A program made the position numbers and the translations under genes. The notes under the pieces are model-generated. The model ran no database searches. It had not been told where the DNA came from and worked only from the letters and a program-made list of their open reading frames with translations. Positions 1,819 through 25,566 of a stretch of 39,732 nt of DNA are shown here, piece by piece. The stretch is from IMG/VR virus record IMGVR_UViG_3300009068_004212, positions 1-39,732 of that record; one strand, 5' to 3'. Origin of the DNA: a virus (lineage: Duplodnaviria > Caudoviricetes). How positions within the stretch are numbered: position 1 is the stretch's first letter; the number at the start of each line of letters is the position of its first letter.

Positions 1819-2801
1819 AAACCAAAGCATTTAAAGAATTAAAATTAACAGATGAAAGGCTCTATTTTAAACCATTCAAATATCCTCAATTTTATGATGC
1901 TTGGTTGAAACATGAACAGTCGCACTGGATTCATAGCGAAGTCCCTATGATTGAAGATGTTAAAGATTGGAAGAAAAAGCTCACTAAACAAGAGCAAACT
2001 TTTTTAACTAACATCTTTAGATTCTTTACTCAAGGCGATATTGATGTTGCTGGTGGATATGTAAAAAATTATCTGCCGTACTTTCCGCAACCTGAAGTGC
2101 GAATGATGCTCTGTGGTTTTGCTGCTCGCGAAGCACTTCATGTTGCTGCATATTCTCATTTGATTGAGACTCTTGGAATGCCCGAGACAACATATAATGA
2201 ATTCATGCAATATGAAGAAATGCGTTCTAAACATGAATTTTTCGCGCAAATCGCTGGGCAAGACGCAAGTACCATTGCTCAACAGATTGCTGCGTTCTCT
2301 GCATTCACTGAAGGTATGCAGTTGTTCTCATCATTCATCATGCTACTTAACTTTCCTCGACATGGAAAGATGAAAGGTATGGGGCAGATCATTACATGGT
2401 CTATTGTTGATGAAACAATGCACGCTGAATCGATGATTAAACTATTCAGAACTTTTATCGAAGAAAATCGAGACATTTGGAAAAATGAATTGAAGTCTGA
2501 AATTTATAAAATTGCTGAAAAGATGGTAGAGCTAGAAGATAGATTTATTGATCTAGCATTTTCAATTGGACCAATGGAGGGATTAAATGGTGATGATGTT
2601 AAGCGTTATATTCGATATATTGCTGATCGTAGGCTCATTTCTCTTGGGCTTAAAGGTATTTTCAAAGTAAAAAAGAATCCTCTTCCTTGGGTGGAAGAAA
2701 TGGTCAATGCGCCCATTCATACTAATTTTTTCGAGAACCGTGCGACGGATTATGCAAAAGGTGCATTGAGTGGTTCTTGGGAAGATGTGTGGGCTGCATA
2801 A
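1815..2801 (+). CDS. nrdB: ribonucleotide reductase class Ia beta subunit
   Basis: FFTQGD, REALHVAAYS, FTEGMQLFSSF, DETMH di-iron motifs, NFFENRATDY tail. Confidence 0.97.
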   Translation: MKTKAFKELKLTDERLYFKPFKYPQFYDAWLKHEQSHWIHSEVPMIEDVKDWKKKLTKQEQTFLTNIFRFFTQGDIDVAGGYVKNYLPYFPQPEVRMMLCGFAAREALHVAAYSHLIETLGMPETTYNEFMQYEEMRSKHEFFAQIAGQDASTIAQQIAAFSAFTEGMQLFSSFIMLLNFPRHGKMKGMGQIITWSIVDETMHAESMIKLFRTFIEENRDIWKNELKSEIYKIAEKMVELEDRFIDLAFSIGPMEGLNGDDVKRYIRYIADRRLISLGLKGIFKVKKNPLPWVEEMVNAPIHTNFFENRATDYAKGALSGSWEDVWAA

Positions 2802-2834
2802 ATAAATTAACATCTCTATGAAAGGAGAACAAAC

Positions 2835-2906
2835 ATGTGGGCTACACCAACATTCGAAGACTTCCGTTTAGGATTTGAAATTTCACTTTACATCAACACT
2901 CGATAA
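2835..2906 (+). CDS. pqqA: PQQ precursor peptide (23 aa, MWATPTFEDFRLGFEISLYINTR)
   Basis: Below the ORF-track size cut-off; AAAGGAG RBS at 2821-2827; MW-x-x-P...RLGFE-x-x-x-Y with the Glu/Tyr pair of PqqA. Confidence 0.93.
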   Translation: MWATPTFEDFRLGFEISLYINTR

Positions 2907-2931
2907 GTATATAATAAAACACATCAACAAC

Positions 2932-2974
2932 ACCCACGACGCCTCTCTATAGAAGCGCACCAGCGTGGGTTTTT
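2932..2974 (+). promoter_or_regulatory. stem-loop with T-tract in the leader of hxlA (terminator/attenuator-like)
   Basis: ACCCACG 2932-2938 pairs with CGTGGGT 2964-2970, inner hairpin, then TTTT; TATAAT at 2910-2915. Confidence 0.5.
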
Positions 2975-2994
2975 AATTCTGAAGGAAATATATA

Positions 2995-3630
2995 ATGGCA
3001 CTAATCCAAGCCGCACTCGATACACTTGATTTTGAACAAACACTCAAACTAGCAAAGGATATTTCCCCTTATGTTGATATCATTGAGCTTGGCACTCCTT
3101 GTATCAAGTTTAATGGAATTCGTTTACTTAAAGAAGTTAAAGCTGCTGTGCCAAACTGCAAAGTTTTAGCAGATCTTAAGACAATGGATGCTGGCTTATA
3201 TGAAGCATCTCCATTCTACGAAGCTGGTGCTGATATCTGCACCGTTCTTGGTGCAGCTGATGCTGGTACCATTAAAGGTGTAGTTGAAGCAGCTAAGTCT
3301 AAAAATGCTCAAGCACAGGTTGATCTGATTAATGTAAAGAATAAACTAGAAACTTTTGCTATTGCTTATGAACTTGGTGCTCATATTATTGGCGTGCATA
3401 CTGGATTAGATCAGCAAGCAAAAGGTCAGACTCCTTTTGAAGACCTAAAGAAAGTTCAGCAAATGAAAGTCGGTCTAAAGATCTCTGTTGCTGGTGGTAT
3501 TAACAAAGATACCATTCGCCAAGCAATCGATGCTGGTGCCGATATTGTTGTAGTAGGTGCAGCGATCTACGGCGCCGCTGATCCTGTTCGTGCTGCCGCT
3601 GAGATTCGGGAAGCTGTTGAACATGGCTAA
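2995..3630 (+). CDS. hxlA: 3-hexulose-6-phosphate synthase (HPS)
   Basis: QAALD, IIELGTPCIK, ADLKTMDAG, HTGLDQQA, VAGG, VGAAIY motifs of methylotroph HPS. Confidence 0.95.
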   Translation: MALIQAALDTLDFEQTLKLAKDISPYVDIIELGTPCIKFNGIRLLKEVKAAVPNCKVLADLKTMDAGLYEASPFYEAGADICTVLGAADAGTIKGVVEAAKSKNAQAQVDLINVKNKLETFAIAYELGAHIIGVHTGLDQQAKGQTPFEDLKKVQQMKVGLKISVAGGINKDTIRQAIDAGADIVVVGAAIYGAADPVRAAAEIREAVEHG

Positions 3631-4189
3631 TTACTCTGATGTTCTTGATATTCTAAGAGACGAACTGCTCTATACCGAAAAAGAAACCTGTCAGCAACTT
3701 ATTGATGTACTTATTCATACGATAAGTCGGAAAGAACATTATCTTGCCGGAAGAGTGTTTATTGCTGCTGCTGGTAGATCTAAGATGGTTGCTAATATGT
3801 TCGCGATGCGAATGATGCATTGTGGATTAAATGTTCAAGTAGTTGGAGAAACCACTACAACTCAGATAACGAGATTTGATTCGCTTCTTCTCGTTTCTGG
3901 TTCAGGCGAGACTAAGCAGTTGATCAATTTTGCTGAGAAGGCAAAGTCAGTTCGTGCTGAAGTATTGTTAGTTACAGCAAGTTCAACGTCTACTCTTAGG
4001 AATATGGCTGATGAGACTTTTCAGATTGGTCCATCAAGTAGAGTTCTATCTCCTGATAAAAATCTTCCTCTTGGTAGCAGGTTTGAACTCTCTACTATGA
4101 TATTTTTTGAGACTGTGATTCTTAATTTCATGGAACAACTTCAATTAAATGAAGATAATCTAAGAAACTGTCATACTAATTTGGAATAA
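3623..4189 (+). CDS. hxlB: 6-phospho-3-hexuloisomerase (PHI, SIS domain)
   Basis: AGRS...FAMRMMH, VVGETTT, SGSGET, LPLGSRFE, C-terminal HTNLE; ATG 3623 overlaps the end of hxlA. Confidence 0.93.
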   Translation: MANYSDVLDILRDELLYTEKETCQQLIDVLIHTISRKEHYLAGRVFIAAAGRSKMVANMFAMRMMHCGLNVQVVGETTTTQITRFDSLLLVSGSGETKQLINFAEKAKSVRAEVLLVTASSTSTLRNMADETFQIGPSSRVLSPDKNLPLGSRFELSTMIFFETVILNFMEQLQLNEDNLRNCHTNLE

Positions 4190-4234
4190 ATAAATAGAGT
4201 AGGGCAATTTCAATTTTTTTCAAGCAGAAAATCA

Positions 4235-4660
4235 ATGGCAAAAACTTTAGTAGAAGCGTCTTCAGAATATATCAGTAAACAAGCTAACGACCTGAAATAT
4301 GCAGGACAACCTTTAGTCGAAGAAACTGACGGCGAGCCTAATCAAAGACAAAGAGAACATTTGAAGAAAATGAGAGATGAACATGGATATGTAGAACAAC
4401 TTGCAAAAGTAGATGCGGCTCGCGGCCATTGGAATAAACATGTAAATCCAAGTTTTAAGAAGCATGACCTTTCGCCTAAATTTGCTGATGCAGTAAATAA
4501 ACATGTAGCTTTACATGGCGATGAAGAAGTGATTAGAAATCATGGTCAGTATGGTTCTCATCCTGATTGGTTTGACCGTAAAACTCAAAAAGTTAAAAAA
4601 CTTAAAGCGGTATATGTTGTAGACAAAAGCGTCGGTGGGGCGATCAATCCAGATTTTTAA
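4235..4660 (+). CDS. hypothetical phage protein (possibly head-associated, late)
   Basis: Clean ORF after TAAATAAATA; charged, His-rich. Confidence 0.6.
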   Translation: MAKTLVEASSEYISKQANDLKYAGQPLVEETDGEPNQRQREHLKKMRDEHGYVEQLAKVDAARGHWNKHVNPSFKKHDLSPKFADAVNKHVALHGDEEVIRNHGQYGSHPDWFDRKTQKVKKLKAVYVVDKSVGGAINPDF

Positions 4661-4991
4661 GTTGTTGGTATGGTCGTATGAAGTAAAGGGAAGGTATTCT
4701 GGACGGCGGGGCAGTGCCGCCCTCGTCCACCAAAAGCATATTGTAAATATGATGCTGTCGAAACACACTGGTTCAGCAATCAATAAATGTTTCGTAAGTA
4801 TGCTTTTGATGGGCGAGAAACAGATTCGACAGGGTAAGATACTGATACAGACGACTCGGTAGGCGATGACCGTAAATCAAGCAAAAAAATAAATGTCGCA
4901 TCTAATGACGACCATTACGAGATGGCTCTAGCAGCCTGATTGTAATTGGGGTTCTTGATGGTTGTTCCTTATTATCCAATACAACCATCAC
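4661..4991 (+). ncRNA. ssrA: two-piece (circularly permuted) tmRNA; tag ASNDDHYEMALAA
   Basis: T-arm GGCGG-GGCAGTG-CCGCC then CTCGTCC-A-CCA (ends 4732); intervening segment paired 4731-4740/4799-4808; 5' piece GGGCGAG (4811) with G3-U70 pair and GATTCGAC; tag ORF 4898-4939; 3' hairpin to ~4991; outer boundaries approximate. Confidence 0.92.
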
Positions 4992-5022
4992 TTCACACAC
5001 AACACACAGAAAAGGAAAATTT

Positions 5023-11249: not shown

Positions 11250-11423
11250 ATGATAAACGAAAGAATTGAAACACTTAGAAATCTAGAAAGAATTTGTTGG
11301 GAAATGGCAGGAGTATTTTTAGAAAACAAAGATGCACATGGAATCCATGACATGGGTGTAGAAATACAAGCACTTCAGCGAGCTTTAGCAGAATTGAATA
11401 AGATTGAAGAGTTCGAAAAATGA
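11250..11423 (+). CDS. hypothetical protein (57 aa)
   Basis: Fills gap; ATGA overlap with the next gene. Confidence 0.5.
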   Translation: MINERIETLRNLERICWEMAGVFLENKDAHGIHDMGVEIQALQRALAELNKIEEFEK

Positions 11424-12184
11424 AAACTTTTAAATCTTTTATTGATTCACAAGAAAACGAACCTTTTGTTCCACATGAACCGGTTCATTTTAAGCATGGA
11501 AATTCAAATGAAAGCCCAGACGAACCTTTTGTTCCAAATGAACCGGTTCATTACAAAAATGATTCTCATATTGAAGAAGAGACTCTCACGGAAGCAAAGA
11601 AAGTCAATTGGCTTGATAAGAATGACAACGAGGAACATTATGATAATATAGAGACTCCTAAAAAACTATCAATTTATCTCATGCATCATGGAAAAGAACA
11701 TACACCAAAAGAAACACAAGCTCTCAAAGATCACAGCATTAATAGCAAACCTTTGAATCGTCATCTAGTTGCTCGACATAAAGATCCCACTTTAAAACCA
11801 GATAAATCTCATGCTATGAGAATACAGCATCTAGATAGCGCAACAAGTCACAAACTTAATCATCCTCTTCATGTTTATTCCGGAATTCGCTGGGATCCTA
11901 GAGAACAGATGAAAAAAACAGATAAGGTTCATCTTCCAGCTTATACATCAACCACTCATGATAAAAAAACTGCTAAGAAATTTGCAAGCAACCATATTCT
12001 TCATATTCATCTTAAAAAAGGTGATAAAGCAGCACCTATAGAACATTTATCACATTATCATGGAGAACATGAAACCGTTCTTCCTCGAAACACGACTCTC
12101 AAGGTAAATAAAACTCCAACAAAGGTTGTGCATGGAAAAAAAACGTATCATGTATGGCACGCGACAGTACATTCACAGAAGTAA
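11420..12184 (+). CDS. ADP-ribosyltransferase (VIP2/Alt-like), probably virion-packaged
   Basis: MKTFKSF start; HVYSG, YTSTT, HILHI, EHETVLPRNT (ExE) motifs. Confidence 0.75.
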   Translation: MKTFKSFIDSQENEPFVPHEPVHFKHGNSNESPDEPFVPNEPVHYKNDSHIEEETLTEAKKVNWLDKNDNEEHYDNIETPKKLSIYLMHHGKEHTPKETQALKDHSINSKPLNRHLVARHKDPTLKPDKSHAMRIQHLDSATSHKLNHPLHVYSGIRWDPREQMKKTDKVHLPAYTSTTHDKKTAKKFASNHILHIHLKKGDKAAPIEHLSHYHGEHETVLPRNTTLKVNKTPTKVVHGKKTYHVWHATVHSQK

Positions 12185-13917: not shown

Positions 13918-16116
13918 TTAAGCAGCCAGTTCCATAAACTTGGAAGCAAGGATTCGGTTAGCCTTGCGGTCACTATTGTTTTTCTTAAAGGCGCCCTTAA
14001 TCTTGGCCAAGGAAGCGTCCTTGTCTACAGTCACTTCAGCGGTATCACTATTCTTAATCAAAAAGAATCGAGTGTAACCCTTAGCGTAGGATTCGAAAAA
14101 CTTCTTTTCCTTCAGTTCAGTCTTAACGATATCCATGCTGACCGAGAAGCCATTCTTATCTGTTGCCATGGTCTGAATGTTAGCGTAGTCGTGCCCCGAT
14201 AACCGAGCCGGGAGCAAAAAGAAACCAAAGGTATTCACGTTCAATTCCTTCTGAATCAGATTCAAAAACAATTCGGTGTTTTGATAAGAGTTCCCGTATC
14301 GATAGAACTCATTCTTAAACTTCAGCTTAGTATTCACTTTGTTATAAGAACTATCGTATTCGGTTTGCCGCTTCACCATGAGACCGTCCTCGTTCATGGC
14401 GTAGTAAGTATCGATTGCGCTGGTGCAACCACCGTCAGTCACAACCACCAGGTTCATGATATCGACTCGGTTCTTTTTCTGAAACTCAGGAAGCAGTTTC
14501 TGCATCACCAAGAGCGCAGGCTTCAGCGGAGTAGAACTCAGGCCCAGTTCGGGAGCAACCACTTGCCGAAACTTACTCGACCGATATCCATAATAAGCGC
14601 CATAAGAATTCGAATAGCCCAGCGCCAGACACACTTCAAAGGCTCGGGCATACTGGTTGCTGGTCATGCTAGAGGACAGCAAGTCGAGGAGATAAACATT
14701 CTCCACTACCAGCTCACCCAGATTTTTAGAAAAACCAGCTTGAATCCGATCGATTCCAGTCGAATAAGGATCGCGACCAGTGAAGGCGAGCACCTGAAAG
14801 GGAATGCCAATTCGTTTGCAAGCCGAAGCCAGAATCAGAACCTGTTCCATAGACTGCGAGAAGGTATCAGCCATTGAGGATGACCAGTCAAGGAGCAGCA
14901 TCATGCCGTGGTTCTTGCCGTTCGGCACGATAGTGCGTGACTTGAACACTTGGTCGGTCATGGTGTAGTAGGACAGCTTGCTCGGGTTAATGTCACCAGT
15001 ATCAGACTGGCGAGCCTTTTTCCAAGAAGCAGCAGACTTCCGCATCTGGAATTCCTTGACATACAGGTCAATGGCATTCTTATTTTTCGATAAGAATTCC
15101 TTCACCGAATTTTTCATTTTCTGATGGGCGAGAGAGCCAGCATCATTATAGGCTTCAGGATTGTATGCTGCCATGAATTCTCGAATTTTCTCGCTAGAAA
15201 TCACGAGTTTTTCGAGAGAACCCACTTTCGGAAGCTGGACAGTATTGAAGCCCTTTGAGGAAGCCAGAGACTGTTCATTCTTACGAAAGGCAGAATCAGT
15301 AAGGGATTCGGGATCCTCTTCGGATTCCTCATCCTCCTCATCATCGCCTTCCTCGGCATCCTTTTGATTCATTTGAGCATCATCGGCAGGTTCGAAATCA
15401 GAGGATTCCTCGTCATTATCATCCTTGCCTTCGCCCCAGAAATCATCATCTTCGGACTCATCCTCTTCGGACATATCGTCTTCAAAAGAATCATCCTCTT
15501 CAGATTCATCCTGTTTCTGTTGCTCTTTTTGCTCTTTTTTCTCCTGTTGCTCATCCTTGCAGTAGGCAAAAAGTTTTTCGGCAACGGCGACAACCTGTTC
15601 CCAGGTCTCGGTGCCTTCGACTTCAGCCAGAAGGAGTTTTTCCTCAGCAGTGAAGGGAACATTCAGGAGTGAACCCAGCTTGCACTTGAGGTTCACACGG
15701 TCGATCAGAAGGAGTTCAGAAAGGACAGTGCCCTTGATTCCGAAGAAATCCTGTTCAAAAAGCTCCTTGTAGCCTCGCAGGAATGAACCGCGAAGCCCAG
15801 GATACTTACGCTTTTGCTTCTTTTCGATACGAGCATCCTCGCATACATTGAGGAAACCCTTGAATCGAGCGCCACGCTTGTCGATAGCGCCGTGCCAGCC
15901 CTCTTCGGAAGTGAATAGAGCGTGCCCAGTCTCATGCCCGACAAGGAGGTCGGTCACGTCCGAGGAGACACCTTCCCAGTTCGGAAGGTACATGGTGCGT
16001 GACTTGAGGTCGAACGCAGCAGTTTTCATGGTGGGGCTGATGGTGATGTTAATGTTTTCAGCAGCCAAGAGCTTGGCAAGCTGAGATTTGGATTGGGAAA
16101 GCGTTTCGGTTTTCAT
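13918..16116 (-). CDS. metallopeptidase-like/vWA (CobT-like) partner of MoxR AAA+ ATPase
   Basis: HETGH (HExxH), EDARIEK, acidic linker, MIDAS DWSSS, STP, VTDG. Confidence 0.85.
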   Translation of the reverse strand: MKTETLSQSKSQLAKLLAAENINITISPTMKTAAFDLKSRTMYLPNWEGVSSDVTDLLVGHETGHALFTSEEGWHGAIDKRGARFKGFLNVCEDARIEKKQKRKYPGLRGSFLRGYKELFEQDFFGIKGTVLSELLLIDRVNLKCKLGSLLNVPFTAEEKLLLAEVEGTETWEQVVAVAEKLFAYCKDEQQEKKEQKEQQKQDESEEDDSFEDDMSEEDESEDDDFWGEGKDDNDEESSDFEPADDAQMNQKDAEEGDDEEDEESEEDPESLTDSAFRKNEQSLASSKGFNTVQLPKVGSLEKLVISSEKIREFMAAYNPEAYNDAGSLAHQKMKNSVKEFLSKNKNAIDLYVKEFQMRKSAASWKKARQSDTGDINPSKLSYYTMTDQVFKSRTIVPNGKNHGMMLLLDWSSSMADTFSQSMEQVLILASACKRIGIPFQVLAFTGRDPYSTGIDRIQAGFSKNLGELVVENVYLLDLLSSSMTSNQYARAFEVCLALGYSNSYGAYYGYRSSKFRQVVAPELGLSSTPLKPALLVMQKLLPEFQKKNRVDIMNLVVVTDGGCTSAIDTYYAMNEDGLMVKRQTEYDSSYNKVNTKLKFKNEFYRYGNSYQNTELFLNLIQKELNVNTFGFFLLPARLSGHDYANIQTMATDKNGFSVSMDIVKTELKEKKFFESYAKGYTRFFLIKNSDTAEVTVDKDASLAKIKGAFKKNNSDRKANRILASKFMELAA

Positions 16117-16291
16117 GCAGCAAGTGTACTCTCTCGAAATGTTAAATCAAACAAAAAGAATTTAATAAAATCAATCAGTTATTTTAATTATATGTTTTCA
16201 TTATGATTTCTCTACGAAACGCTTCCACACCATTGGAACATTCATAAAATGTATGGACACAAACGAAAGCGCATGGTAAAAACTTCAATAA

Positions 16292-16650
16292 AATCAATAA
16301 CTTAGATGTTGTCATCATTCCGTCACTTAAAAGACAAACTCTAATAAAATCAATGACTTACGAAAAATCTGCCGAATGTAATTCTTCTCGCAAGGTCTAG
16401 AGTCGTGAAACTCAAGGAAATGAGAGTTTTGGTTTGAGTTTCTATCGCCCAGGCTCGGTGTCCATCCCGGAAACTCTCCATCGACTGAGCCACTTAGCGT
16501 CAAACTATTTTTGGATTATAACACTCGGTGTCGGACATGTAAACTTTTTTCTTTTTTGTGCAGAATTCTTAAGAAAAACAATCAGAAGGAGTAAGTAATT
16601 GATTTAACTGAAATCTTTTCTATTTTCTTACGATATCACCCATGTATACT
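16292..16650 (+). repeat. intergenic module A (with ~128-bp insert): tandem IHF-consensus boxes, conserved core, inverted box pair, -10 TATACT
   Basis: Boxes 16292 and 16348; TGCCGAATGTAATT core; box pair 16576/16592; TATACT 16645. Confidence 0.8.
16515..16543 (-). promoter_or_regulatory. sigma70/T4-early-type promoter on the minus strand
   Basis: (G)TTTACA-17 nt-TATAAT on the reverse strand. Confidence 0.7.
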
Positions 16651-16775
16651 GTCACTGTGAAATTCAAAACGAAAGAGAAATTGCCATGATTATTTGTTCG
16701 ATTCTGTTCTTTCTGATTTTTGTTCCCGTGATTGTCTCCATTTGTTCCTGCTCCAAATTTGAGGGTTAAGCCACC

Positions 16776-16940
16776 ATGAGTTACTTTTCCAATCTCCAGA
16801 TTCAAGTCGAGGAAATGCTTTTCGAAGGCAAGTCCGAATGGACTATCGCCTCCGTCCTCGGGATTCCTGTCGAGTGGGTTGAAACCCTCTCCGCCTGCCC
16901 CGAAGCCACTGTCGAAGATCTCGCCGAAGATTTCGGCTAA
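16776..16940 (+). CDS. small hypothetical protein, paralog of 26327-26578
   Basis: VEEMLFEG...IASVLGIPVEWVE vs IQEMLLEG...IAKVLNVPMEWVE. Confidence 0.7.
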   Translation: MSYFSNLQIQVEEMLFEGKSEWTIASVLGIPVEWVETLSACPEATVEDLAEDFG

Positions 16941-17046
16941 TTAAATCAACTGGTTAGAGTAAGTGATTGTTTTCTTAAGAAAATTAAAGTTTGCAATCCT
17001 TCCTCTCACCAGTATACTACTCGCATAGTTCAAAAAGAGAGTAAAA

Positions 17047-18207
17047 ATGAAAGCTGACCGCAAAGCCGTTCTTGATATGCTCACCGCATATCAAGCTGAA
17101 AAGGGAGAGAGTACCATCTCCCGCACCGAACTCCTCAACCTGTGCGCCGCCAAGGGTATCAATGTCCCTCAGTGGTTCACTAACGAACCTCAGTATCGCG
17201 CTGGTCGCGGTGTCTATCAGTTGCCTTCTGCTGGTGCTCCCGCGATGGTTGCCCAGGTGATTCCGATGGCGCCTGCTGCTCCGCAAGTGAAGCAGATGGC
17301 CACGCTCATGAGTGACCTGTCCGCTGAATGCTCCATCCCTGAGGTGTACTTCAATTACATTCCGTTCGGAAACTTTGACAAAATCAAAGCCATTGTGACT
17401 TCCAAGCGGTTTTTCCCGACGTTCATCACCGGTCCTTCTGGCAACGGTAAGACGATGGCAGTAGAACAGGCTTGTGCCCAAGCGGGTCGCGAGTTCGTTC
17501 CCGTGTCCATGACTGACGAGACTGACGAGGGCGACCTGATTGGTAATTACGTCCTGCTGGATGGCTCCATGGTGTGGCGTGATGGTCCTGTGACTGTTGC
17601 CGCTCGTAAGGGCGCGGTGCTGCTGATCGATGAAATCGACTACGGCTCCAAGAACCTGTCCTGTCTCCAGCGTGTCCTTGAGGGCAAGCCCTTCCTTCTG
17701 AAAAAGAAAAACGAAATGGTTGTCCCTGCTGAAGGCTTCAATGTGATTGCCACGGCTAACACCAAGGGTCAGGGTTCTGATTCTGGCAAGTACATGTACA
17801 CCAACATTCTTAACGAAGCCTTCCTTGAGCGATTCCCGATTACGCTGGAACAGCCCTGGGCTCCTAAGGCTATCGAGGTGAAAATTCTCAAGGGTGAATT
17901 GAAGGCTGTTGGTGTGAATGATGATGCCTTCGCTAAGGAACTGGTCGAGTGGGCAGATACGATTCGTAAGACTTACGAGGATGGTGGTATCGAGGAAGTG
18001 GTCTCCACTCGCCGACTCGTCCACATCATCAAGGCTTACGGAATCTTTAACGATAAGGCTTTCGCCGTCGAGAAGTGCCTGAGTCGTTATGATGCTGAAA
18101 CCAAGGCTTCCTTCCTCGACCTTTTCGCGAAGGTGACCTCTGATGCTTCCTTCGGTGGTCAGCCTGAACCCACTGTCGCGAGTGAATCGACGGAGATGCC
18201 TTACTAA
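17047..18207 (+). CDS. cobS: CobS-like MoxR-family AAA+ ATPase
   Basis: Walker A GPSGNGKT, Walker B LLIDEID, TANTKG, AFLERF, STRRL. Confidence 0.88.
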   Translation: MKADRKAVLDMLTAYQAEKGESTISRTELLNLCAAKGINVPQWFTNEPQYRAGRGVYQLPSAGAPAMVAQVIPMAPAAPQVKQMATLMSDLSAECSIPEVYFNYIPFGNFDKIKAIVTSKRFFPTFITGPSGNGKTMAVEQACAQAGREFVPVSMTDETDEGDLIGNYVLLDGSMVWRDGPVTVAARKGAVLLIDEIDYGSKNLSCLQRVLEGKPFLLKKKNEMVVPAEGFNVIATANTKGQGSDSGKYMYTNILNEAFLERFPITLEQPWAPKAIEVKILKGELKAVGVNDDAFAKELVEWADTIRKTYEDGGIEEVVSTRRLVHIIKAYGIFNDKAFAVEKCLSRYDAETKASFLDLFAKVTSDASFGGQPEPTVASESTEMPY

Positions 18208-18219
18208 AAGGAAAAGATG

Positions 18220-18250
18220 AGGGCTGGGTATTGAAAGCCTAGCCCTTTCT
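18220..18250 (+). terminator. putative intrinsic terminator
   Basis: AGGGCTGGG/CCTAGCCCT stem then TTCT after cobS. Confidence 0.5.
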
Positions 18251-18287
18251 CACTACACTAATTCAAATATTAAAAAATGAGTTGAAA

Positions 18288-18638
18288 ATGCCACGTTCGA
18301 AAAAAAGTTCTGCTGTTCAATACGAAAAGGTTCTCCAGATTCTGGTGACCAATCCTCCTGTTGGTCCAGCTGGGCGCATTGTTCCTGTTGCCGAAATTCA
18401 GGAGGTTCTCAGTAATCAGATCCAGCTGGCTCGCATGAGCGTTTACATTTATGAAATCAAAAAGGCTGGAATCCCACTACGCCCCATCCGTGACGGTAAG
18501 AAAGTGATTGCCTACCAGCTGCCCTTTGTGTACATGGGAATTGACTATCTAAGCAAGCGCGGAATGTACATTCACGTTCCGAAGGCTGTTCCAAAAGAAA
18601 TTCTTAAGAATGAGGTGACCGCCGATGAAGTCGAATGA
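18288..18638 (+). CDS. hypothetical protein (possible wHTH, T4-like RDGKKVIAYQL family)
   Basis: Clean ORF; start uncertain. Confidence 0.6.
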   Translation: MPRSKKSSAVQYEKVLQILVTNPPVGPAGRIVPVAEIQEVLSNQIQLARMSVYIYEIKKAGIPLRPIRDGKKVIAYQLPFVYMGIDYLSKRGMYIHVPKAVPKEILKNEVTADEVE

Positions 18639-18711
18639 TGAACTCAAGGAATTGGTTAAAGCCCTTGATGAAATTTTGAATAAAATTCTTTTACGATTAG
18701 AGTCCTTCTGA
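18625..18711 (+). CDS. 28-aa amphipathic peptide whose stop codon lies in the ribozyme core
   Basis: GAGGTG RBS; MKSNDELKELVKALDEILNKILLRLESF. Confidence 0.4.
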   Translation: MKSNDELKELVKALDEILNKILLRLESF

Positions 18712-18785
18712 TGAGCCTTCACTAGGCGAAACTTGGAATTCCTTTGTGAGGCATTCTGGATGCTTCAGGAATTCAAGTCAAGGAC
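18702..18785 (+). ncRNA. type I hammerhead ribozyme
   Basis: Stem I GTCCTT/AAGGAC, CTGATGA core 18708-18714, stem II GCCT/AGGC, GAAA 18728-18731, long stem III, GTC cleavage triplet 18777-18779. Confidence 0.88.
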
Positions 18786-18788
18786 ACG

Positions 18789-19166
18789 CACCGAGACCTT
18801 GTGGTGTATCGGTGACGCGGGAAATGTCCCAGGAAGAATGTAGAAATGAGAGTCTTGTCGGAGTTGATCGCCCGCCCTCTCATAGGAAAAGCATTCTTAA
18901 ACCACACTCATTCATCACCGAACGTGCTGGATAGCATCCAGCTAGTGTGCGCCCGCATGATGAGAAGCCATGTTGCAGTGGCGGGGCCTTACCCTTAGGC
19001 AGCGAAGGGCGGTAGCAACCCGAGAGTTTCCTGTGGCCGGGAAGAGGATGGTAGGGCTGGAAGAAGGTAGGTAAGTTGATGGTATCGAAGGGCAGGGCAC
19101 CCAGACCCGGGAACCAGATGAGGCGAACCTATTGGACAGTCTATAGAACCTCCGCACAGGGAAAGC
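18789..19166 (+). ncRNA. unidentified GC-rich structured non-coding region
   Basis: Many nested helices, no credible ORF, between the ribozyme and module B. Confidence 0.55.
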
Positions 19167-19173
19167 ACTTAAA

Positions 19174-19405
19174 AATCAATGACTTACAAAAACACGCAAT
19201 GTGTTCACTCCAGACGACTTTTCCAATGAAATCAAGCACTTACGGAAAATCTGCCGAATGTAATCCATCGAGCAGGGTGTAGAGTCGCTAGAATTCAAAA
19301 TCCAAGCACTTTTCCTTTTTTCCCTTTCAAATCAATCAGTTTCCATATCTTATTGAATTCTTAAGAATTCTTTTTATAGAAAAGATTCTTTTCTTTTCTT
19401 AAAAT
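19174..19405 (+). repeat. intergenic module B
   Basis: Boxes 19174, 19230, 19330, 19346; core TGCCGAATGTAAT; -10 TAAAAT 19400. Confidence 0.8.
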
Positions 19406-19436
19406 TGCATTGTCGAATTCATAGAGAGAAGCCAAA

Positions 19437-19592
19437 ATGATTTTTGTCCAAAGCCAAGCCAACGGGTTGTTCTGGAACGGTGTTGCCTTTGCTGCTCCGT
19501 TTGCCGAAGCCCTTCCCGTGACGACTAAAATCGGCCAGTACCTTGCCTGGATGAGCAATGCGATTGCCATTCAGATTACCGTTGACGGCTAA
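19437..19592 (+). CDS. hypothetical protein (51 aa)
   Basis: ORF after module B promoter; codon style like neighbours. Confidence 0.55.
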   Translation: MIFVQSQANGLFWNGVAFAAPFAEALPVTTKIGQYLAWMSNAIAIQITVDG

Positions 19593-19638
19593 TCGGAATT
19601 CTTTTACAATTGTTCCGTTGCCTAAAGAGAAATAATTC

Positions 19639-20151
19639 ATGAGCCTTGCCTCTCGAAAGTCCGAAATCGAAGCCAAAGTCAAAGCTCTGGTTTCCAAAAT
19701 CGAATCCCAGTTCGGTATCAAAGTCCCTCCAATCGCCGTCAAGTTCAACTTGCGCGGTGCTGCTGCTGGATGGGCTCGCGTGAGCAGGAGCGGTGAATAC
19801 TCGCTCCGCTTCAATACTGACATGATGATGAACGAAAGCTGGGACCATCTGTTTAACGATACCGTTCCGCATGAGGTTGCCCATCTGATTGGCTATCGCA
19901 TGGGCCACGGGATGAACCATGGTAGAGAGTGGCGCTCCCTTTGCATCCGACTGGGTGGTACTGGAAAGCGGTGCCATAACGAGCAGGTGACCTACGCGAA
20001 GGGCTCGACGTATGAATATAAGACCACAACGGGTCGAGCGGTCATCATCAGCCAGATTCGCCACAACCGAGTCCAGCGCCAAGGTGAAGTCTACCGCTGG
20101 CGCGATGGTTCTAAAATTGATAGCACCTGCGCCTTCAAAAAGGTTGCATAA
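19639..20151 (+). CDS. SprT-like zinc metalloprotease
   Basis: LRGAAAGWA, LRFN, TVPHEVAH, HGREW. Confidence 0.88.
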   Translation: MSLASRKSEIEAKVKALVSKIESQFGIKVPPIAVKFNLRGAAAGWARVSRSGEYSLRFNTDMMMNESWDHLFNDTVPHEVAHLIGYRMGHGMNHGREWRSLCIRLGGTGKRCHNEQVTYAKGSTYEYKTTTGRAVIISQIRHNRVQRQGEVYRWRDGSKIDSTCAFKKVA

Positions 20152-20201
20152 GAATTCCAATTCGACTAAGCTGTCCCTGTCAAAACAAAAAGGAAACGAA
20201 A

Positions 20202-20393
20202 ATGGAAATGATTCCCGCATATGAAGCCGCTCTGAAATCCCACGACTGGTACTACTCCATGTCCGACGATGGTCGCTACTACCGCAAAGGGTTGGCGGAA
20301 TCTGTCGCTATTGCCGAGCTGAAGATCAAGCTCCATGCTGCTGGTCTGGGTGAACTCGCGGACGAGTTGTATCTGAAATACATGCCGAAGTAA
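20202..20393 (+). CDS. conserved phage hypothetical protein
   Basis: LKSHDWYYSMSDD motif; RBS. Confidence 0.7.
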   Translation: MEMIPAYEAALKSHDWYYSMSDDGRYYRKGLAESVAIAELKIKLHAAGLGELADELYLKYMPK

Positions 20394-20456
20394 TAGTTGA
20401 CAGAAAGTTTTCCTTTCTCTAAGATATTCATACTGAAAACGCGAAGGAGATTCCAA

Positions 20457-20807
20457 ATGGCCTATATGAACCAAGAAAAGAAAGCTCTGATTGCCCCCGC
20501 CGTGAAGGCGATTCTTAAGAAATATAAGATGAAGGGGACACTGAGCGTTCACAATTACTCGACGCTCTGCCTGAACATCAAGAGCGGTCCGATTCAGTTC
20601 TCCGAAGACGGCAAGCCGATTGATGTGAATCCGTACTGGTTCCATGAACACTATTCGGGCAAAGCGCTCAAGTTCCTCAAGGAAATTTTTGCCGCGATGA
20701 ATGCCGGGAACCACGACAAGTCCGAATCGCAGTATGATTACTTTGACGTTGGCTGGTACGTTCGCGTGAATGTCGGCCAGTGGAACAAACCCTACGTTAA
20801 GATTTAA
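20457..20807 (+). CDS. conserved phage hypothetical protein
   Basis: MAYMNQEKKA...DYFDVGWY...GQWNKPY; AAGGAG RBS. Confidence 0.75.
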   Translation: MAYMNQEKKALIAPAVKAILKKYKMKGTLSVHNYSTLCLNIKSGPIQFSEDGKPIDVNPYWFHEHYSGKALKFLKEIFAAMNAGNHDKSESQYDYFDVGWYVRVNVGQWNKPYVKI

Positions 20808-20818
20808 GGAGAGACCTA

Positions 20819-21028
20819 ATGAGTTCACCGATTCCCTCACTGGTTGAACAGCTCGATCAAGCTGATTCCTCGGCCTTTGTCGCTATGCTTTTCACTGCGA
20901 CCAAGGAAGGCAAGCTGACCAAAAGGCAGTTCGCCGACCTGATGGAACTATTCGCCACTTATTGCTCCGGGGCTGGTCAATATATTTTTGACTACAAGGT
21001 CCGAGCGATTCTCGCAAAAGTTAAGTAA
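20819..21028 (+). CDS. hypothetical protein
   Basis: AAGGAG RBS. Confidence 0.65.
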   Translation: MSSPIPSLVEQLDQADSSAFVAMLFTATKEGKLTKRQFADLMELFATYCSGAGQYIFDYKVRAILAKVK

Positions 21029-21259
21029 ATCAATCACTTACGACTCTCCGAGGAACATTCACTCGGAGAGTTTTTTTTAATCTTTTCAATCACTTACCGA
21101 AAATCTGCCGCAGGAAACTTTTCTCGCAAGGTCTAGACTCGCGAAACTCTGGATTCCGATGCTTTTTCTCTCTTTTCATTGAAAAACAATCAATTGGAAT
21201 AAGTCATTGAATTCTTAAGAATTCTTTTTATAGAAAAGATTCTTTTCTTTTCTTAAACT
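21028..21259 (+). repeat. intergenic module C
   Basis: Boxes 21028, 21084, 21184, 21200; -10 TAAACT 21254. Confidence 0.8.
21043..21078 (+). terminator. intrinsic terminator inside module C
   Basis: ACTCTCCGAG/CTCGGAGAGT 10-bp stem followed by T-run. Confidence 0.75.
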
Positions 21260-21265
21260 GGCCGC

Positions 21266-21790
21266 ATGAAAAAAGAAATCAAAATTCCTGAAGCCAAGAA
21301 AATCACTTGCACTCGCTGCCGAGGCAAAGGTTATTTGTCGGGTTGCGTAGTAGTCTACTACGGTGCGCCTGGAACCTGCTTTATGTGCGACGGTCGTGGT
21401 GAAATCTGGGCTGACAAATTCCATCGAGTTTACGGAGTCGGTAAGAAATTCTTCGGACTCACTTCGGTGGTGTTTTATAACGAAGGCAATCCGAACAACG
21501 GTGTCTTCAAGAAAATTCTTTCCGAAAAAGAAATCAAAGTGCTTGAGAAGGAAGGTCGCTGGGATACCAAAGTGATTTTCCGCTGGGTTGAAATTACCGA
21601 AGTTCAAGCGCGGCAATTCTTCAAGACTTACAAGGAACAGCATGGCTACGGCGTTCAGGTATCAAAGGATATTCTATCCGATCCGATGGGCCAGCAATTG
21701 CTTGATGAGCGAGCCGCTGAACGCCAGCGCATGAGGGATGAATCTGCTGCTCGGAAAAAAGTGCTTGCAAACCTTTCCGAGCAAGGTTAA
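21266..21790 (+). CDS. protein with DnaJ-type CxxCxGxG zinc finger; likely leaderless
   Basis: CTRCRGKG, CFMCDGRG; ATG 6 nt after TAAACT, no RBS. Confidence 0.7.
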   Translation: MKKEIKIPEAKKITCTRCRGKGYLSGCVVVYYGAPGTCFMCDGRGEIWADKFHRVYGVGKKFFGLTSVVFYNEGNPNNGVFKKILSEKEIKVLEKEGRWDTKVIFRWVEITEVQARQFFKTYKEQHGYGVQVSKDILSDPMGQQLLDERAAERQRMRDESAARKKVLANLSEQG

Positions 21791-21825
21791 ACTAACAGCA
21801 TAGAAAACAGAGAGAGAAAAGCGCG

Positions 21826-22026
21826 ATGATTGTCACTAATGATTATGATTTTACCTACTGCCAGCTTGCTGGTCTTTACAAGCGCATTACCACCTCGGGG
21901 TCTACTCGCGAGGGTTTCAAATCCTACTGGTTAGTTGAAGAAGGTGAGTTCACGACTGAGCAGGTTGAAGAATTCGCTATCGCCTTTTATACCGCTTATA
22001 ACAAAATGTTTCCGGGAACCTTTTAA
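21826..22026 (+). CDS. hypothetical protein
   Basis: ORF after TAAACTAACAGC promoter. Confidence 0.6.
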   Translation: MIVTNDYDFTYCQLAGLYKRITTSGSTREGFKSYWLVEEGEFTTEQVEEFAIAFYTAYNKMFPGTF

Positions 22027-22036
22027 GGAGAACATC

Positions 22037-22243
22037 ATGACTCTTACCAAACGCACCGCTGCCGCTATGAAAAAATACAGTTTGTACACTTGCCTCGAAG
22101 CGTATGAGGAAAGCCTTCGCGGAGAAGGCGCTTACACCATTAGCTGTACGGTGAAGGGAATTCGCGAGGGTTGCACTCGTCAAGCTGATGCCGCGATTAA
22201 TGCGGGCGAGGAAATTTACAAGTTCCTCGAAGCCAAGATATAA
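22037..22243 (+). CDS. hypothetical protein
   Basis: AAGGAG RBS before ATG 22037. Confidence 0.65.
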   Translation: MTLTKRTAAAMKKYSLYTCLEAYEESLRGEGAYTISCTVKGIREGCTRQADAAINAGEEIYKFLEAKI

Positions 22244-22257
22244 AAAGGAGAACTGTC

Positions 22258-22479
22258 GTGCCGCGTGTTTTGAAGCCCATCCATTTGCGAAAGGGCATGA
22301 TCATATCGGGTTACTCGGGTATGCCTGAGGAGCTTGAAGGATTTTCGTTTTATATTCTCGGAGTAGAATTCAGTAGTGACGGCTCGGTGTGGGTTTCGGG
22401 AAACAGAATTGGTTTTGAAGCACCAGCGGACGATGAGCTTTACTTTTACGACTTCACCTACGTTAAAGTCTCTAATTAA
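22258..22479 (+). CDS. hypothetical protein, paralog of 26780-27004
   Basis: AAGGAG + GTG; GM.I...FY...VEF..D...V.GN shared. Confidence 0.65.
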   Translation: MPRVLKPIHLRKGMIISGYSGMPEELEGFSFYILGVEFSSDGSVWVSGNRIGFEAPADDELYFYDFTYVKVSN

Positions 22480-22548
22480 AATTGTTGCAAAACGGAATTT
22501 GTTTCACTACACTAGCAGCATGAAATTTGAAAGCAAAAGGAACTAGCC

Positions 22549-22737
22549 ATGCAGACTCGTATGAAATACATCCGCGAAAAAATTGAGGATGTGATTGTCA
22601 CTGAAGGATTCAGAGAGTGTAGTGCGCTTGTAGAAAAACTTGAGAGGTATTCAAGAATTGATGATGAACTTTCAGCATCTGGCTTTGCGAAATTGCCCGC
22701 TACTCCCGAATGGATTCTTGAAATCGAATCTAAGTAA
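22549..22737 (+). CDS. hypothetical protein
   Basis: AAGGA RBS. Confidence 0.6.
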   Translation: MQTRMKYIREKIEDVIVTEGFRECSALVEKLERYSRIDDELSASGFAKLPATPEWILEIESK

Positions 22738-22753
22738 GAAAGGAATTTAAGAA

Positions 22754-22963
22754 ATGAATGTCAAAATCAAAATCTCGACAGGCGCTCGGCATAATGCTTT
22801 TGTTTTCAATACCACGTTGGATGCGTTTTTTGCCGACAATCCTAATGTGGAGCATAAGCGGGAAAATATCGTGCATGATCTGAAGACTTATGGTGATGCT
22901 CGGATTGATATTCCTGGTGCTGGTTCCTCTGCCCCTTCAGCTTTTCTGGTGTTAATTCCTTAG
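22754..22963 (+). CDS. hypothetical protein, tandem paralog of the next gene
   Basis: FVFNTTLDAFFADNPNV. Confidence 0.65.
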   Translation: MNVKIKISTGARHNAFVFNTTLDAFFADNPNVEHKRENIVHDLKTYGDARIDIPGAGSSAPSAFLVLIP

Positions 22964-22970
22964 GAAAAAA

Positions 22971-23162
22971 ATGATTATCAACGCTAAAGTCTCAGGTTTT
23001 GAATTCCAGACCACGCTCGAAAAGTTTCTTTTTGAGAATCCGAATCTTAAGATTCAGAAGTTTCAGATTGAAAATGATTTGCTGCTCAAGGGAGTTTCGA
23101 TCATTCCCGAGGCAAATCCTTATCGCGGCACTGCATGTTTTCTTACGTTAATTGGAGAATAA
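22971..23162 (+). CDS. hypothetical protein, tandem paralog of the previous gene
   Basis: FEFQTTLEKFLFENPNL. Confidence 0.65.
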   Translation: MIINAKVSGFEFQTTLEKFLFENPNLKIQKFQIENDLLLKGVSIIPEANPYRGTACFLTLIGE

Positions 23163-23165
23163 AAA

Positions 23166-23468
23166 ATGCATAAGAAACACTCACTCTTAAAAGAAAGACT
23201 CCTCAGAGAAATCGCGAGCGACTGGCGTTACCTGGTGGGGGAATATGGATATGATGCAGTCATGAGCAAGGTGAATTCCTTCATGGAAACCTATGCACTC
23301 TATTCGGCGGCTTATGAATGCGAACCAGGTTCAGAGACCGATGAGGATGTAAAGAAGTGGGTGAAGCATATTGCTGAATGCTCGGAGTTTCGAGAGTTGA
23401 AGCGAAAGCGGGATGAGGAAGTCAATAGATTTGTCTGTGAATCGTTAGGAATCAATCACTTACCATAA
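23166..23468 (+). CDS. hypothetical protein
   Basis: GGAG RBS. Confidence 0.6.
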   Translation: MHKKHSLLKERLLREIASDWRYLVGEYGYDAVMSKVNSFMETYALYSAAYECEPGSETDEDVKKWVKHIAECSEFRELKRKRDEEVNRFVCESLGINHLP

Positions 23469-23531
23469 GTCGCTGATTTTTATTGAATTGTTTTTCTTTT
23501 CTTATTTGATTCTTTTTCTTAAACTAACAGC

Positions 23532-23810
23532 ATGAAATTTGAACAGAAAAAGGAAATCCTGATGACCCTTACGCTCACCCACTTTCACAATTCGATTATC
23601 CGCAACTGGAATTACGCCCACACCATGGCGTGCAATGCTTACCGCAATCGCGATATGGAGACCGTGAATGCGATTGTCGAGGCGATGGAGATTCGCGCTT
23701 TTTCGATGGAGAATCTCGACCGGCAAGCCGTTGTGGAAGATGAGCTTAGGCTTTGCATCAAGGTTCGTGATATTCTCATGAACGAACTGGGTTATACTTA
23801 CTGCGCTTAA
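23532..23810 (+). CDS. hypothetical protein (alternative RBS-led start 23562)
   Basis: ATG 6 nt after TAAACT; in-frame second ATG with AAGGA. Confidence 0.6.
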   Translation: MKFEQKKEILMTLTLTHFHNSIIRNWNYAHTMACNAYRNRDMETVNAIVEAMEIRAFSMENLDRQAVVEDELRLCIKVRDILMNELGYTYCA

Positions 23811-23832
23811 AATCTAATTGAGGAAATTCAAA

Positions 23833-24081
23833 ATGGAAAAACTTGATATGATTATGATTGGTGACCGAGTGCGCTACGAGTCTGCTGCTGGCACGATTCG
23901 CGGTGAAGTGAAGAGTATTTACCTCGCAAAAAACCTTGCGAATCAGCTTATCCCGTGGCTGATGATTGAATACGTTTCGCGCTGGGGCGGCCATCTGGAT
24001 ACTGCAACATTCGCTGGCTCTGAGGAGAATCTGGAGATGATGAAATTCCAGGTGAACTTCCGAGACAAAAAAGTCGCTTGA
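23833..24081 (+). CDS. conserved phage hypothetical protein
   Basis: GAGGA RBS; IGDRVRYESAAGTIRGEV. Confidence 0.7.
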   Translation: MEKLDMIMIGDRVRYESAAGTIRGEVKSIYLAKNLANQLIPWLMIEYVSRWGGHLDTATFAGSEENLEMMKFQVNFRDKKVA

Positions 24082-24135
24082 TTTTCTCCTGGAAAGAGAA
24101 TAAGCTACATCCATAGTGAAATTGAGGAGTAAGAA

Positions 24136-24288
24136 ATGAAAAAAGTTTACACCGTGATGATTGAAACCGGCGATTTCCGCTGGGTGTTCGGAAACTTTGA
24201 CAGCCTGGAGGCTGCGACGGAGTGTTCAGAACTCCACAGCGATCAGCCTTATCCTGTCTCGATTAAGATTTCTTACGTTGAAGCCTAA
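24136..24288 (+). CDS. hypothetical protein (50 aa)
   Basis: GAGGAG RBS; below track cut-off. Confidence 0.6.
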   Translation: MKKVYTVMIETGDFRWVFGNFDSLEAATECSELHSDQPYPVSIKISYVEA

Positions 24289-24298
24289 GGAGAATAGA

Positions 24299-24529
24299 AT
24301 GAACTGGAATTTGGAAGGCTCTGTGATTGTGGCGAAATACCTCGGTGAGGTTTCGATTAAGGGTTTGGTTGTCGAAAGCCGCGTCAAATATGGCGGCAAG
24401 GTGCAGCACACGGTTGATCTCGAAACCCCCGTCATTCTCAAGTGGAGAACGGAACCCGTGACTCGGGTGCTCATCGGGGATGAGGAAATTCTTTTCGTTT
24501 TTGACAAGTCGGGCGCGAAAGCGGCGTAA
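24299..24529 (+). CDS. conserved phage hypothetical protein
   Basis: AAGGAG RBS; MNWNLEG...ESRVKYGGKVQHTV. Confidence 0.75.
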   Translation: MNWNLEGSVIVAKYLGEVSIKGLVVESRVKYGGKVQHTVDLETPVILKWRTEPVTRVLIGDEEILFVFDKSGAKAA

Positions 24530-24751
24530 AAGGAGACTAGCATGTACGGAGGCACTGACGATCCTGTATTAAGGGCGCTATGCCTAGTTTGGCTAATTGC
24601 GTTCATTTGCAAAGCATTTGGAATTTTCTAAAAAGAATTTAAGAAAAACAATAATTTACGTTAAGTAATTGATTTCTTTGAATTCTTTTTTCTTTCTTTG
24701 ACGACCGATTCTGTTAATCTATGCTTAATGAAAACGCAAGGGAAAAAACTC

Positions 24752-24988
24752 ATGAACTACCGCTCCGCTGTTATCGATATGGCCGCTCAATGCACCGCCC
24801 AGGAATACAATCTGCCCGCCGACAATGAGTTCCTGGTGCAGGCTGCGGGATACGTGGTTGAGAACTGGTTCGGTGACCTGTATGACTTTAACTGCGAGGC
24901 CGACGCTATGGACGCCCAGGACGAGATCTGCCTCTTGCTCCTCCATGATGTGAAGGAAAAGTATTACACACTGGTCGAACTGGGCTAA
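24752..24988 (+). CDS. hypothetical protein (in-frame upstream ATG 24728)
   Basis: AAGGGA RBS. Confidence 0.6.
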   Translation: MNYRSAVIDMAAQCTAQEYNLPADNEFLVQAAGYVVENWFGDLYDFNCEADAMDAQDEICLLLLHDVKEKYYTLVELG

Positions 24989-25001
24989 AAAAGGAAATAA
25001 C

Positions 25002-25271: not shown

Positions 25272-25292
25272 ATTTGATGAGAGGAGAATAGA

Positions 25293-25481: not shown

Positions 25482-25566
25482 GAAAATCAACGACTTACAT
25501 TAAGTGATTGATTTCTTTGAGTTTCTTTTCGTTGTTTTTCTTTTTTGGAATACTTAAACTAACAGC

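Follow-up and report, generated by a model that had tools for sequence, protein, structure and literature searches.

The window analysed here, 39,732 nucleotides of a virus of the class Caudoviricetes (IMG/VR record IMGVR_UViG_3300009068_004212), raises the question of why a phage would carry the gene for the precursor peptide of pyrroloquinoline quinone (PQQ), pqqA, together with both genes of the formaldehyde-fixing core of the ribulose monophosphate (RuMP) cycle, hxlA and hxlB.

Genes of the block and their phage setting

The ribonucleotide reductase genes nrdA (3-863) and nrdB (1815-2801, + strand; small subunit, PF00268 259 bits) lie upstream of the block in the same window, with one zinc-ribbon ORF and one HNH-like ORF between them. 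The nrdB stop is followed after 33 nt by the start of pqqA (2835-2906, +), which encodes a PQQ precursor peptide of 23 aa with an E15-x-x-x-Y19 motif and has its ribosome-binding site, AAAGGAGA, at 2820-2827. Further downstream are hxlA (2995-3630, +), encoding an HPS (3-hexulose-6-phosphate synthase) of 211 aa, and hxlB (3623-4189, +), encoding a 6-phospho-3-hexuloisomerase (PHI) of 188 aa counted from the ATG at 3623. All three genes are open, share one orientation and score above a curated family cut-off, and their coordinates agree with an earlier note on this DNA, which had described an intact hxlA-hxlB pair preceded by pqqA. The same note called hxlA and hxlB translationally coupled; hxlB does overlap the hxlA stop by 8 nt (ATGGCTAA), and the coupling itself is putative, being read from that overlap alone.

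PqqA scores 32 bits against TIGR02107 (cut-off 20) and 30 against PF08042 (cut-off 21.1). The glutamate and tyrosine of its ExxxY motif (E15, Y19) are retained in all eight aligned phage copies, while the window peptide deviates from the common FGFEVTMY core. HxlA scores 248 bits against TIGR03128 (equivalog cut-off 200), covering model positions 1-205 of 205, and the UlaD/KGPDC models score below their own cut-offs. The predicted active-site residues of HxlA are of the HPS type and not of the KGPDC type: P35, G86, D110, L138, A166 and A189 are the residues that Table 1 of PMC5980557 gives for 3ajx, and not those of its KGPDC entries. The protein also retains D9, E31, G33, T34, P35, D60, K62, D65, D110 and H135, and 17 of the 19 HPS positions inspected are invariant across 48 phage and cellular rows. 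The entry 3ajx is both the closest PDB entry by sequence and the top Foldseek match (TM 0.90, rmsd 1.6) of the HxlA structure model (pLDDT 92), in which the (beta/alpha)8 fold of the OMPDC superfamily is predicted. HxlB, a stand-alone SIS domain (PF01380) adjoining hxlA, passes TIGR03127 narrowly (163.7 bits against a cut-off of 160) and matches the PDB entries 1vim, 1m3s and 1jeo. The phage pair thus belongs to the same families as the cellular hxlAB/rmpAB (M. gastri 3ajx; B. subtilis YckF 1m3s), with the same gene order and active-site residues. However, the cellular pairs have spacers of about 25-275 nt between the matches where the phage ORFs overlap, and the phage HxlAB, unlike its cellular counterparts, is diverged (at most 66%/50% identity to sampled cells) and joined to pqqA and a tmRNA.

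The setting of the block is that of a T4-like phage, as the earlier note proposed. The window carries CobS/CobT-type, RuvC-like, virion and Alt-like genes, and gp23 was not found among the 43 window ORFs scanned; a 155-kb relative with a 94% identical NrdB (G161) encodes gp23, a portal and a sheath protein, and polymerase B. The best three DNA-holding samples carry a freshwater label.

Recurrence of the block and its neighbours

IMG/VR yielded five other hxlA loci, and metagenomes yielded at least seven more of 70% identity or above, the latter drawn from the best 80 of 568 matches in 17 of 64 database parts; two of the metagenome loci share an identical HPS. In all 12 of the other loci listed, hxlB directly follows hxlA. 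The search for hxlA-hxlB-pqqA synteny that the earlier note had suggested recovered the trio order in nine of the 12, with pqqA directly upstream of hxlA, and in two more pqqA lies elsewhere in the record. The protein database holds 56 further HPS clusters of 67-95% identity that group with the phage loci and are known from proteins alone. With P0038 as the query, IMG/VR gave no match, and the 12 HPS matches in the GenBank phage collection were set aside, all being below 60% and on bacterial-looking contigs.

The cassette had been described as directly downstream of nrdAB. This is correct for the window, but a wider meaning of the adjacency is not supported. Of the 11 other loci that show an upstream gene, none has nrdB in that place, and in four larger relatives nrdB is found at distances of about 5, 15, 17 and 50 kb. 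The link with nrdAB is therefore positional and particular to this genome. What lies upstream varies from locus to locus and may be nrdB, an ORF like SAM decarboxylase, a sugar island or something else.

On the other side, the conserved downstream neighbour of hxlB is a permuted (two-piece) tmRNA. In the window it occupies 4621-4995 (+) and fits the betaproteobacterial-type model, with 120 bits for RF04321 (gathering score 47) and 95 for RF01850 (gathering score 84); the tRNA-like domain and the tag frame are present. ARAGORN does not call it, and its T-loop is off consensus. A permuted tmRNA follows hxlB in nine of the 11 related loci searched, and the two misses fall at contig edges, one of which shows the tmRNA start. 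The conserved unit is pqqA-hxlA-hxlB-tmRNA. The gap between hxlB and the tmRNA holds an ORF of 141 aa (4235-4660, +) without a match in Pfam, NCBIfam or PHROG; it has a counterpart in contig L099, is absent from the contigs of other runs (joints 4189-4662) and is optional among relatives. Two-piece tmRNAs are already known from aquatic phages (PMC9004378; PMC11915505), and the window tmRNA has no DNA match in the GenBank phage collection.

G161 lacks the hxlAB pair. Of hxlB the last 19 codons are left there, together with pqqA, the leader hairpin and the tmRNA. This remnant indicates that hxlAB was deleted there, cleanly, and therefore that the pair is dispensable.

A recent insertion of host DNA or a chimeric assembly would leave the block without a phage role, and the earlier note had named a chimera as a possible refutation. 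In favour of this, tmRNA genes are common sites of integration (PMC11915505) and one adjoins the block, and hxlAB is missing from one relative. Against this, a single contig of run X1, possibly the source, spans 2309-4884 with no differences and an even depth of 7.7 (flanks 7.0-7.8), and independent contigs bridge the nrdB-pqqA junction in runs X2 (0 differences) and X4 (4 differences), both coded as other studies; the bridging evidence lies outside runs X5-X18, X20 and X22, which hold small shares. The GC3 of hxlA (0.25) and hxlB (0.27) is phage-like, six other window genes lying at 0.21-0.31 and one distant gene at 0.60. The closest cellular gene comes no nearer than 66% (HPS) or 50% (PHI), and the tmRNA is permuted, whereas those that ARAGORN calls in three named candidate hosts are of the standard form. 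Compared with relatives, dN/dS is 0.11-0.22 for hxlA (nine pairs), 0.07-0.22 for hxlB (seven pairs) and 0.09-0.25 for pqqA in five of seven pairs, the other two being saturated. These values, none above 0.25, show that pqqA-hxlA-hxlB is under purifying selection on a phage contig, flanked by phage genes. An insertion or chimera is largely refuted, and we consider it highly improbable. A separate IMG/VR contig (L001) encodes HxlA and HxlB identical to those of the window and may derive from the window's own population. Contigs 80-98% alike to hxlA/hxlB occur in all four RNA libraries; they come from relatives, may reflect DNA carry-over and are suggestive only as a sign of expression.

Cellular relatives and the host

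The closest named cellular relatives of the phage enzymes are overwhelmingly RuMP methylotrophs, at 58-66% identity (31 of 64 GTDB parts scanned), in keeping with a genuine phage-borne C1 cassette. The finer label of the earlier note was an HPS resembling Methylophilaceae-type enzymes. Mean HPS identity is 58.1% to Methylophilaceae, 57.5% to Methylococcales and 58.5% to Methylophaga, and the corresponding values for PHI are 37.5, 39.4 and 38.2%; the best cellular identity among 301 Methylococcales is 66% for HPS and 50% for PHI. Because the identities are equal across the three groups, the label is unsupported. In an HPS tree that omits duplicate loci and P0058-P0120, a branch with SH 100 separates 69 rows from 90 cellular rows. 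The trees place the phage rows on their own long branch, which joins beside Methylophaga and at a distance from Methylophilaceae, although a grouping of phage with Methylophilaceae was not rejected by an AU test (p=0.26) on a tree omitting 18 of 48 rows. A rooted tree omits three loci without a full PHI, and its root was not used because the outgroup branch is very long and the bootstraps are unsettled. Judged from these comparisons, HPS and PHI appear to make up a phage-associated clade at equal distances from the three cellular groups.

The nearest cellular homologues are in line with the earlier proposal that the phage infects a RuMP methylotroph. We infer odds of about 50% for Methylococcales (a gammaproteobacterial methanotroph), about 30% for Methylophilaceae and about 20% for another or unsampled RuMP lineage. 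A gammaproteobacterial host is favoured by several comparisons. PstS of an hxlAB-bearing relative (G158) is 68-71% identical to three gammaproteobacterial methylotrophs and 29-32% to two Methylophilaceae, and the window PqqA gives 55, 50 and 45% against 43 and 38% (Methylovulum 55%, Methylophilaceae 38-43%). Among 46 viral pmoC contigs found with a motif pattern, eight carry pqqA, and the window NrdB is 71% identical to NrdB on three pmoC contigs and at most 66% in GenBank phages. Both pqqA-bearing phages of PMC7674155 were assigned to Methyloparacoccus. The window PqqA also shares 15 of 22 residues, counted by eye, with the PqqA of one pmoC contig (L358). For the commoner form of phage PqqA the two candidates barely differ (61-70% to Methylophilaceae, 64-73% to Methylococcales), and the gp32 of G161 is just 45-56% identical to the gp32 of pmoC contigs. 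The 46 pmoC contigs and the six IMG/VR hxlA loci have no member in common, and no pmoC was found in seven related records, which are 3-81% complete, the window being a 40-kb fragment.

A Methylophilaceae host is also supported, because the three best GTDB hits to the phage enzymes are Methylophilaceae (31 of 64 parts scanned), DNA matches to hxlA are stronger there (best E 7.6e-55 in 86 Methylophilaceae genomes against 3.9e-33 in 156 Methylococcales, to which composition may contribute), the tmRNA tags of relatives end as in Methylophilaceae, and the Lake Baikal phages discussed below set a precedent. Other genes add little: the ferritin-like protein (36-37% to G001, G002 and G005, none in G003 and G004) and NrdB (at most 33%) are uninformative on the host, and the porin gives a weak signal (38/34% against 29%). 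No CRISPR spacer to the window was found in the 156 Methylococcales and 86 Methylophilaceae genomes, with two to three candidates scored per genome; a lone 31-nt, 97% spacer-like match was rejected, as it lies in the Walker B motif of an AAA-ATPase and has no repeats. The tmRNA names no host, because cellular genomes gave no match above the cut-offs: none of five named methylotroph genomes exceeded the permuted or beta cut-offs, nor did any of 151 class-wide genomes (10 candidates scored per genome), and a weak 39-nt DNA match appeared in one of 400 genomes. The tag ending of the window tmRNA resembles that of Methylovulum and was rejected as host evidence, since the tags of relatives differ.

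Proposed role and expression of the block

In RuMP organisms, HPS and PHI convert formaldehyde and ribulose-5-phosphate to fructose-6-phosphate, which enters assimilation or a cyclic oxidative branch yielding NAD(P)H (PMC8879981). This selected phage block, common to freshwater T4-like contigs, likely sustains one-carbon assimilation in an infected RuMP methanotroph or methylotroph, a reading to which we assign a probability of roughly two in three. Running forward, HxlA and HxlB would convert formaldehyde and ribulose-5-phosphate via hexulose-6-phosphate to fructose-6-phosphate while host expression falls, so that formaldehyde would be removed and hexose phosphate supplied for pentose, NADPH and sugar-nucleotide synthesis. 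No enzyme regenerating ribulose-5-phosphate was present among the ORFs scanned, and in engineered hosts this regeneration limits fixation (PMC8879981). PqqA would top up the sole component of the PQQ pathway that is used once per cofactor, while the host would provide methanol dehydrogenase and the catalytic part of the PQQ pathway. Since one PqqA is consumed per PQQ, a lone pqqA would be the cheapest way of maintaining the cofactor with host enzymes. Methylophilaceae have 1-12 pqqA matches per genome (61 of 61 genomes), which suggests that dosage matters. A PQQ-dehydrogenase family match was absent from five related, incomplete records, and PqqB-E from the 261 of 331 listed ORFs of relatives that were scanned (120-1500 aa), consistent with reliance on host enzymes.

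Archaea run HPS and PHI in reverse, and the phage enzymes might likewise turn fructose-6-phosphate into ribulose-5-phosphate and formaldehyde, feeding the adjoining ribonucleotide reductase, whose nrdB lies 33 nt 5' of pqqA in this genome. We consider this use quite improbable. The nrdB adjacency is not conserved (0 of 11 other loci; 5-50 kb off in four relatives), which leaves a reverse flux towards dNTPs without positional support, and the conserved partner is instead pqqA, which serves formaldehyde production. The nearest named homologues are methylotroph enzymes, and the HPS-PHI sequence has been described as irreversible in the fixing direction (PMC8879981). The enzymes may also run forward and mainly detoxify formaldehyde or provide hexose phosphate for phage glycan genes, rather than support overall carbon uptake. 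In six of the nine other trio loci the upstream ORF resembles, on reading, an NAD-dependent epimerase of a sugar island, in G161 this site comes after genes for GDP-mannose dehydratase, an epimerase and DegT, and hxlAB of B. subtilis serves detoxification (PMC8879981). Yet the upstream neighbours vary among loci, G161 has kept the sugar island and lost hxlAB, and pqqA would increase formaldehyde production. Detoxification or glycan supply is therefore a doubtful main role, which keeps some weight because sugar-nucleotide genes are often upstream.

As for precedents, the earlier note knew of no described phage with the full trio. We found no publication of the pqqA-hxlA-hxlB trio, of the module or of the clade, although AMG tables or subscription papers could list it, and the text and five supplement files of PMC10904782 and the texts of PMC9875498 and PMC12397222 report no viral pqqA, hxlA or hxlB. 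However, pqqA and hxlA/hxlB have each been published. Adjacent viral hxlA and hxlB (genes 70 and 71; K08094, K08093) are listed on one freshwater-mesocosm contig in Supplementary Data 2 of PMC12370912, together with K01611 (SAM decarboxylase) and K00980. Genes of the K01611/K00980 type also occur in relatives of the window, so by its description this contig may belong to the same group. In that source the genes are names in an AMG abundance list, with no pqqA among the listed rows and, unlike here, no accompanying analysis of synteny, phylogeny, host or selection.

Phage pqqA has been reported in methylotroph phages of Lake Baikal (PMC7678222). These phages, VP_139 and VP_266, are likewise T4-like, of about 35% GC and carry an auxiliary pqqA, and C1 metabolism was proposed there to feed nucleotide synthesis. 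They differ in carrying methanol dehydrogenase, where the phages here have HxlAB and no dehydrogenase in five related records; their host was given as Methylophilaceae, and "hexulose" is absent from the main text of PMC7678222. The pmoC-phages of freshwater methanotrophs are large and likewise carry a C1 auxiliary gene, and PqqA is encoded by TP6_1 and LM_6 among them (PMC7674155, Table S7). These act at methane oxidation, and neither hexulose nor hxl appears in the text or five supplement files of PMC7674155. In freshwater phages, the C1 auxiliary genes already known (pmoC, methanol dehydrogenase, pqqA) act at oxidation, and the new element here is their extension to the entry point of assimilation. 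HxlAB stands at the branch deciding whether methane or methanol carbon goes to biomass or CO2, and a selected, recurrent phage hxlAB would give viruses of lakes and rivers an influence on this split. A further consequence is that not all hps/phi reads in metagenomes are of cellular origin. The diverged phage HPS/PHI set is a resource for synthetic methylotrophy, and the window and G161 form a natural pair with and without hxlAB, in which the benefit of the genes becomes testable given a host.

Two promoter-like sites may govern expression of the block. A putative T4 late-promoter-like site, CATAAATA, at 2797-2804 (+) overlaps the nrdB stop and resembles the consensus quoted in PMC9004378. The motif ATAAATA occurs 12 times on the + strand of the window and once on the - strand; 5.0 are expected on +, and 12 were reached in none of 100 simulations. 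A predicted sigma-70-like promoter, TTTACA-17-TATAAT, lies at 2887-2915 (+) in the 3' end of pqqA with 11 of 12 consensus matches and would drive hxlAB. Sigma-70-like sites in the region overall are not in excess (5 against 5.5 in shuffles). The -10 TATAAT is retained in nine of 11 aligned loci, the window counted, and the -35 falls within coding sequence. The sigma-70-like site may serve early expression and the late-promoter-like site late expression.

The leader of hxlA, between pqqA and hxlA, holds a predicted abiF-like RNA hairpin of 38 nt (2933-2970, +) followed by a U-run. It scores 24.6 bits against RF03085 (E 0.022), and the hairpins of three relatives score 26.7-31.2, all under the gathering score of 37. 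Two-sided changes occur at two of 13 pairs in 10 sequences, and the leader of hxlA, taken by itself, does not fold significantly (z -0.44). Among 24 IMG/VR loci, the hairpin precedes hxlA in five, the hxlB remnant of G161 in one and an 82-aa ORF in 18; none of these loci showed an AbiF-family gene next to the hairpin, the 82-aa ORF lying outside the family scan. An abiF motif has been reported in cyanophage S-CREM1 (PMC9964418), and those of C. difficile work as terminator-linked antitoxin RNA (PMC12373285). The hairpin resembles abiF RNA, including the RCd22 antitoxin RNA of PMC12373285, in length, sequence, gene-leader position and U-run, and differs in its sub-gathering scores, its single copy and its place before hxlA or an unrelated 82-aa ORF. 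It may act as an attenuator or as a defence decoy. A tentative and rather unlikely extension is that T4-like methanotroph phages of fresh water, as a clade that diverged long ago, possess a formaldehyde-fixing step of their own in the form of a regulated and exchangeable module of pqqA, abiF-like leader, hxlAB and tmRNA. This module would shift methane carbon in infected cells from oxidation into phage biomass, with the hairpin also acting as a decoy for host defence nucleases of the AbiF type. Both the hairpin and the permuted tmRNA are additions to what the earlier note recorded.

Divergence and loss of hxlA and hxlB

Within this phage group, hxlA and hxlB appear, from their sequences, to have recombined or diverged separately, because the PHI proteins of the other hxlA loci L093/L094 and L098 are 45–51% identical to that of the window, yet the adjacent HPS proteins share 73–85% identity. 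In the relative G161 (L224 1408–1610), hxlA and most of hxlB are cleanly deleted, leaving pqqA, the leader hairpin, 19 hxlB codons, and the tmRNA, and this phage thus represents a natural minus-hxlAB control.

RNA elements flanking the genes

The abiF-like hairpin in the window (2933–2970) is not confined to leaders of hxlA: a different phage group has it at 18 loci (among L206–L229), where a conserved 82-aa ORF lies downstream of it. The hairpin is a candidate for a new phage RNA family or a defence decoy. In L093 (5028–5110) and L098 (1957–2040), a short tRNA-like element with a T-loop-like motif is inserted between pqqA and hxlA; ARAGORN made no call of it at either position. Nor did ARAGORN call the permuted tmRNA of the window (4621–4995), which has an atypical T-loop and shows paired changes relative to its relatives in the T-arm and acceptor stem. 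In contrast, the three candidate hosts in which a tmRNA was called carry the standard one-piece form.

Accessory genes and base composition

Among methanotroph phages, pqqA recurs as an accessory gene, given its presence on 8 of the 46 pmoC-carrying IMG/VR contigs (L356–L363). The hxlAB-bearing relative G158 encodes PstS and a phosphate porin (L239 14580–16940; L240 10432–16847; L241 4003–4419), and the same stretches carry CsgF/CsgG, an adenylate-cyclase/CHASE2/FecR set, SOD, and a weak ubiquitin-family match.

Between nrdA and nrdB, the window contains a low-GC HNH/homing-endonuclease-like ORF (1132–1818; phrog_10820, E 6e-06), which is missing from the corresponding position in the relatives G160 and G161. 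An ADP-ribosyltransferase-family ORF (11420–12184) is Alt/Mod-like, of the phage host-takeover type. The GC content rises to as much as 0.53 at 13918–27000, compared with approximately 0.37 in the rest of the window; this region, which includes the CobS/CobT-type genes, is possibly of mosaic origin.
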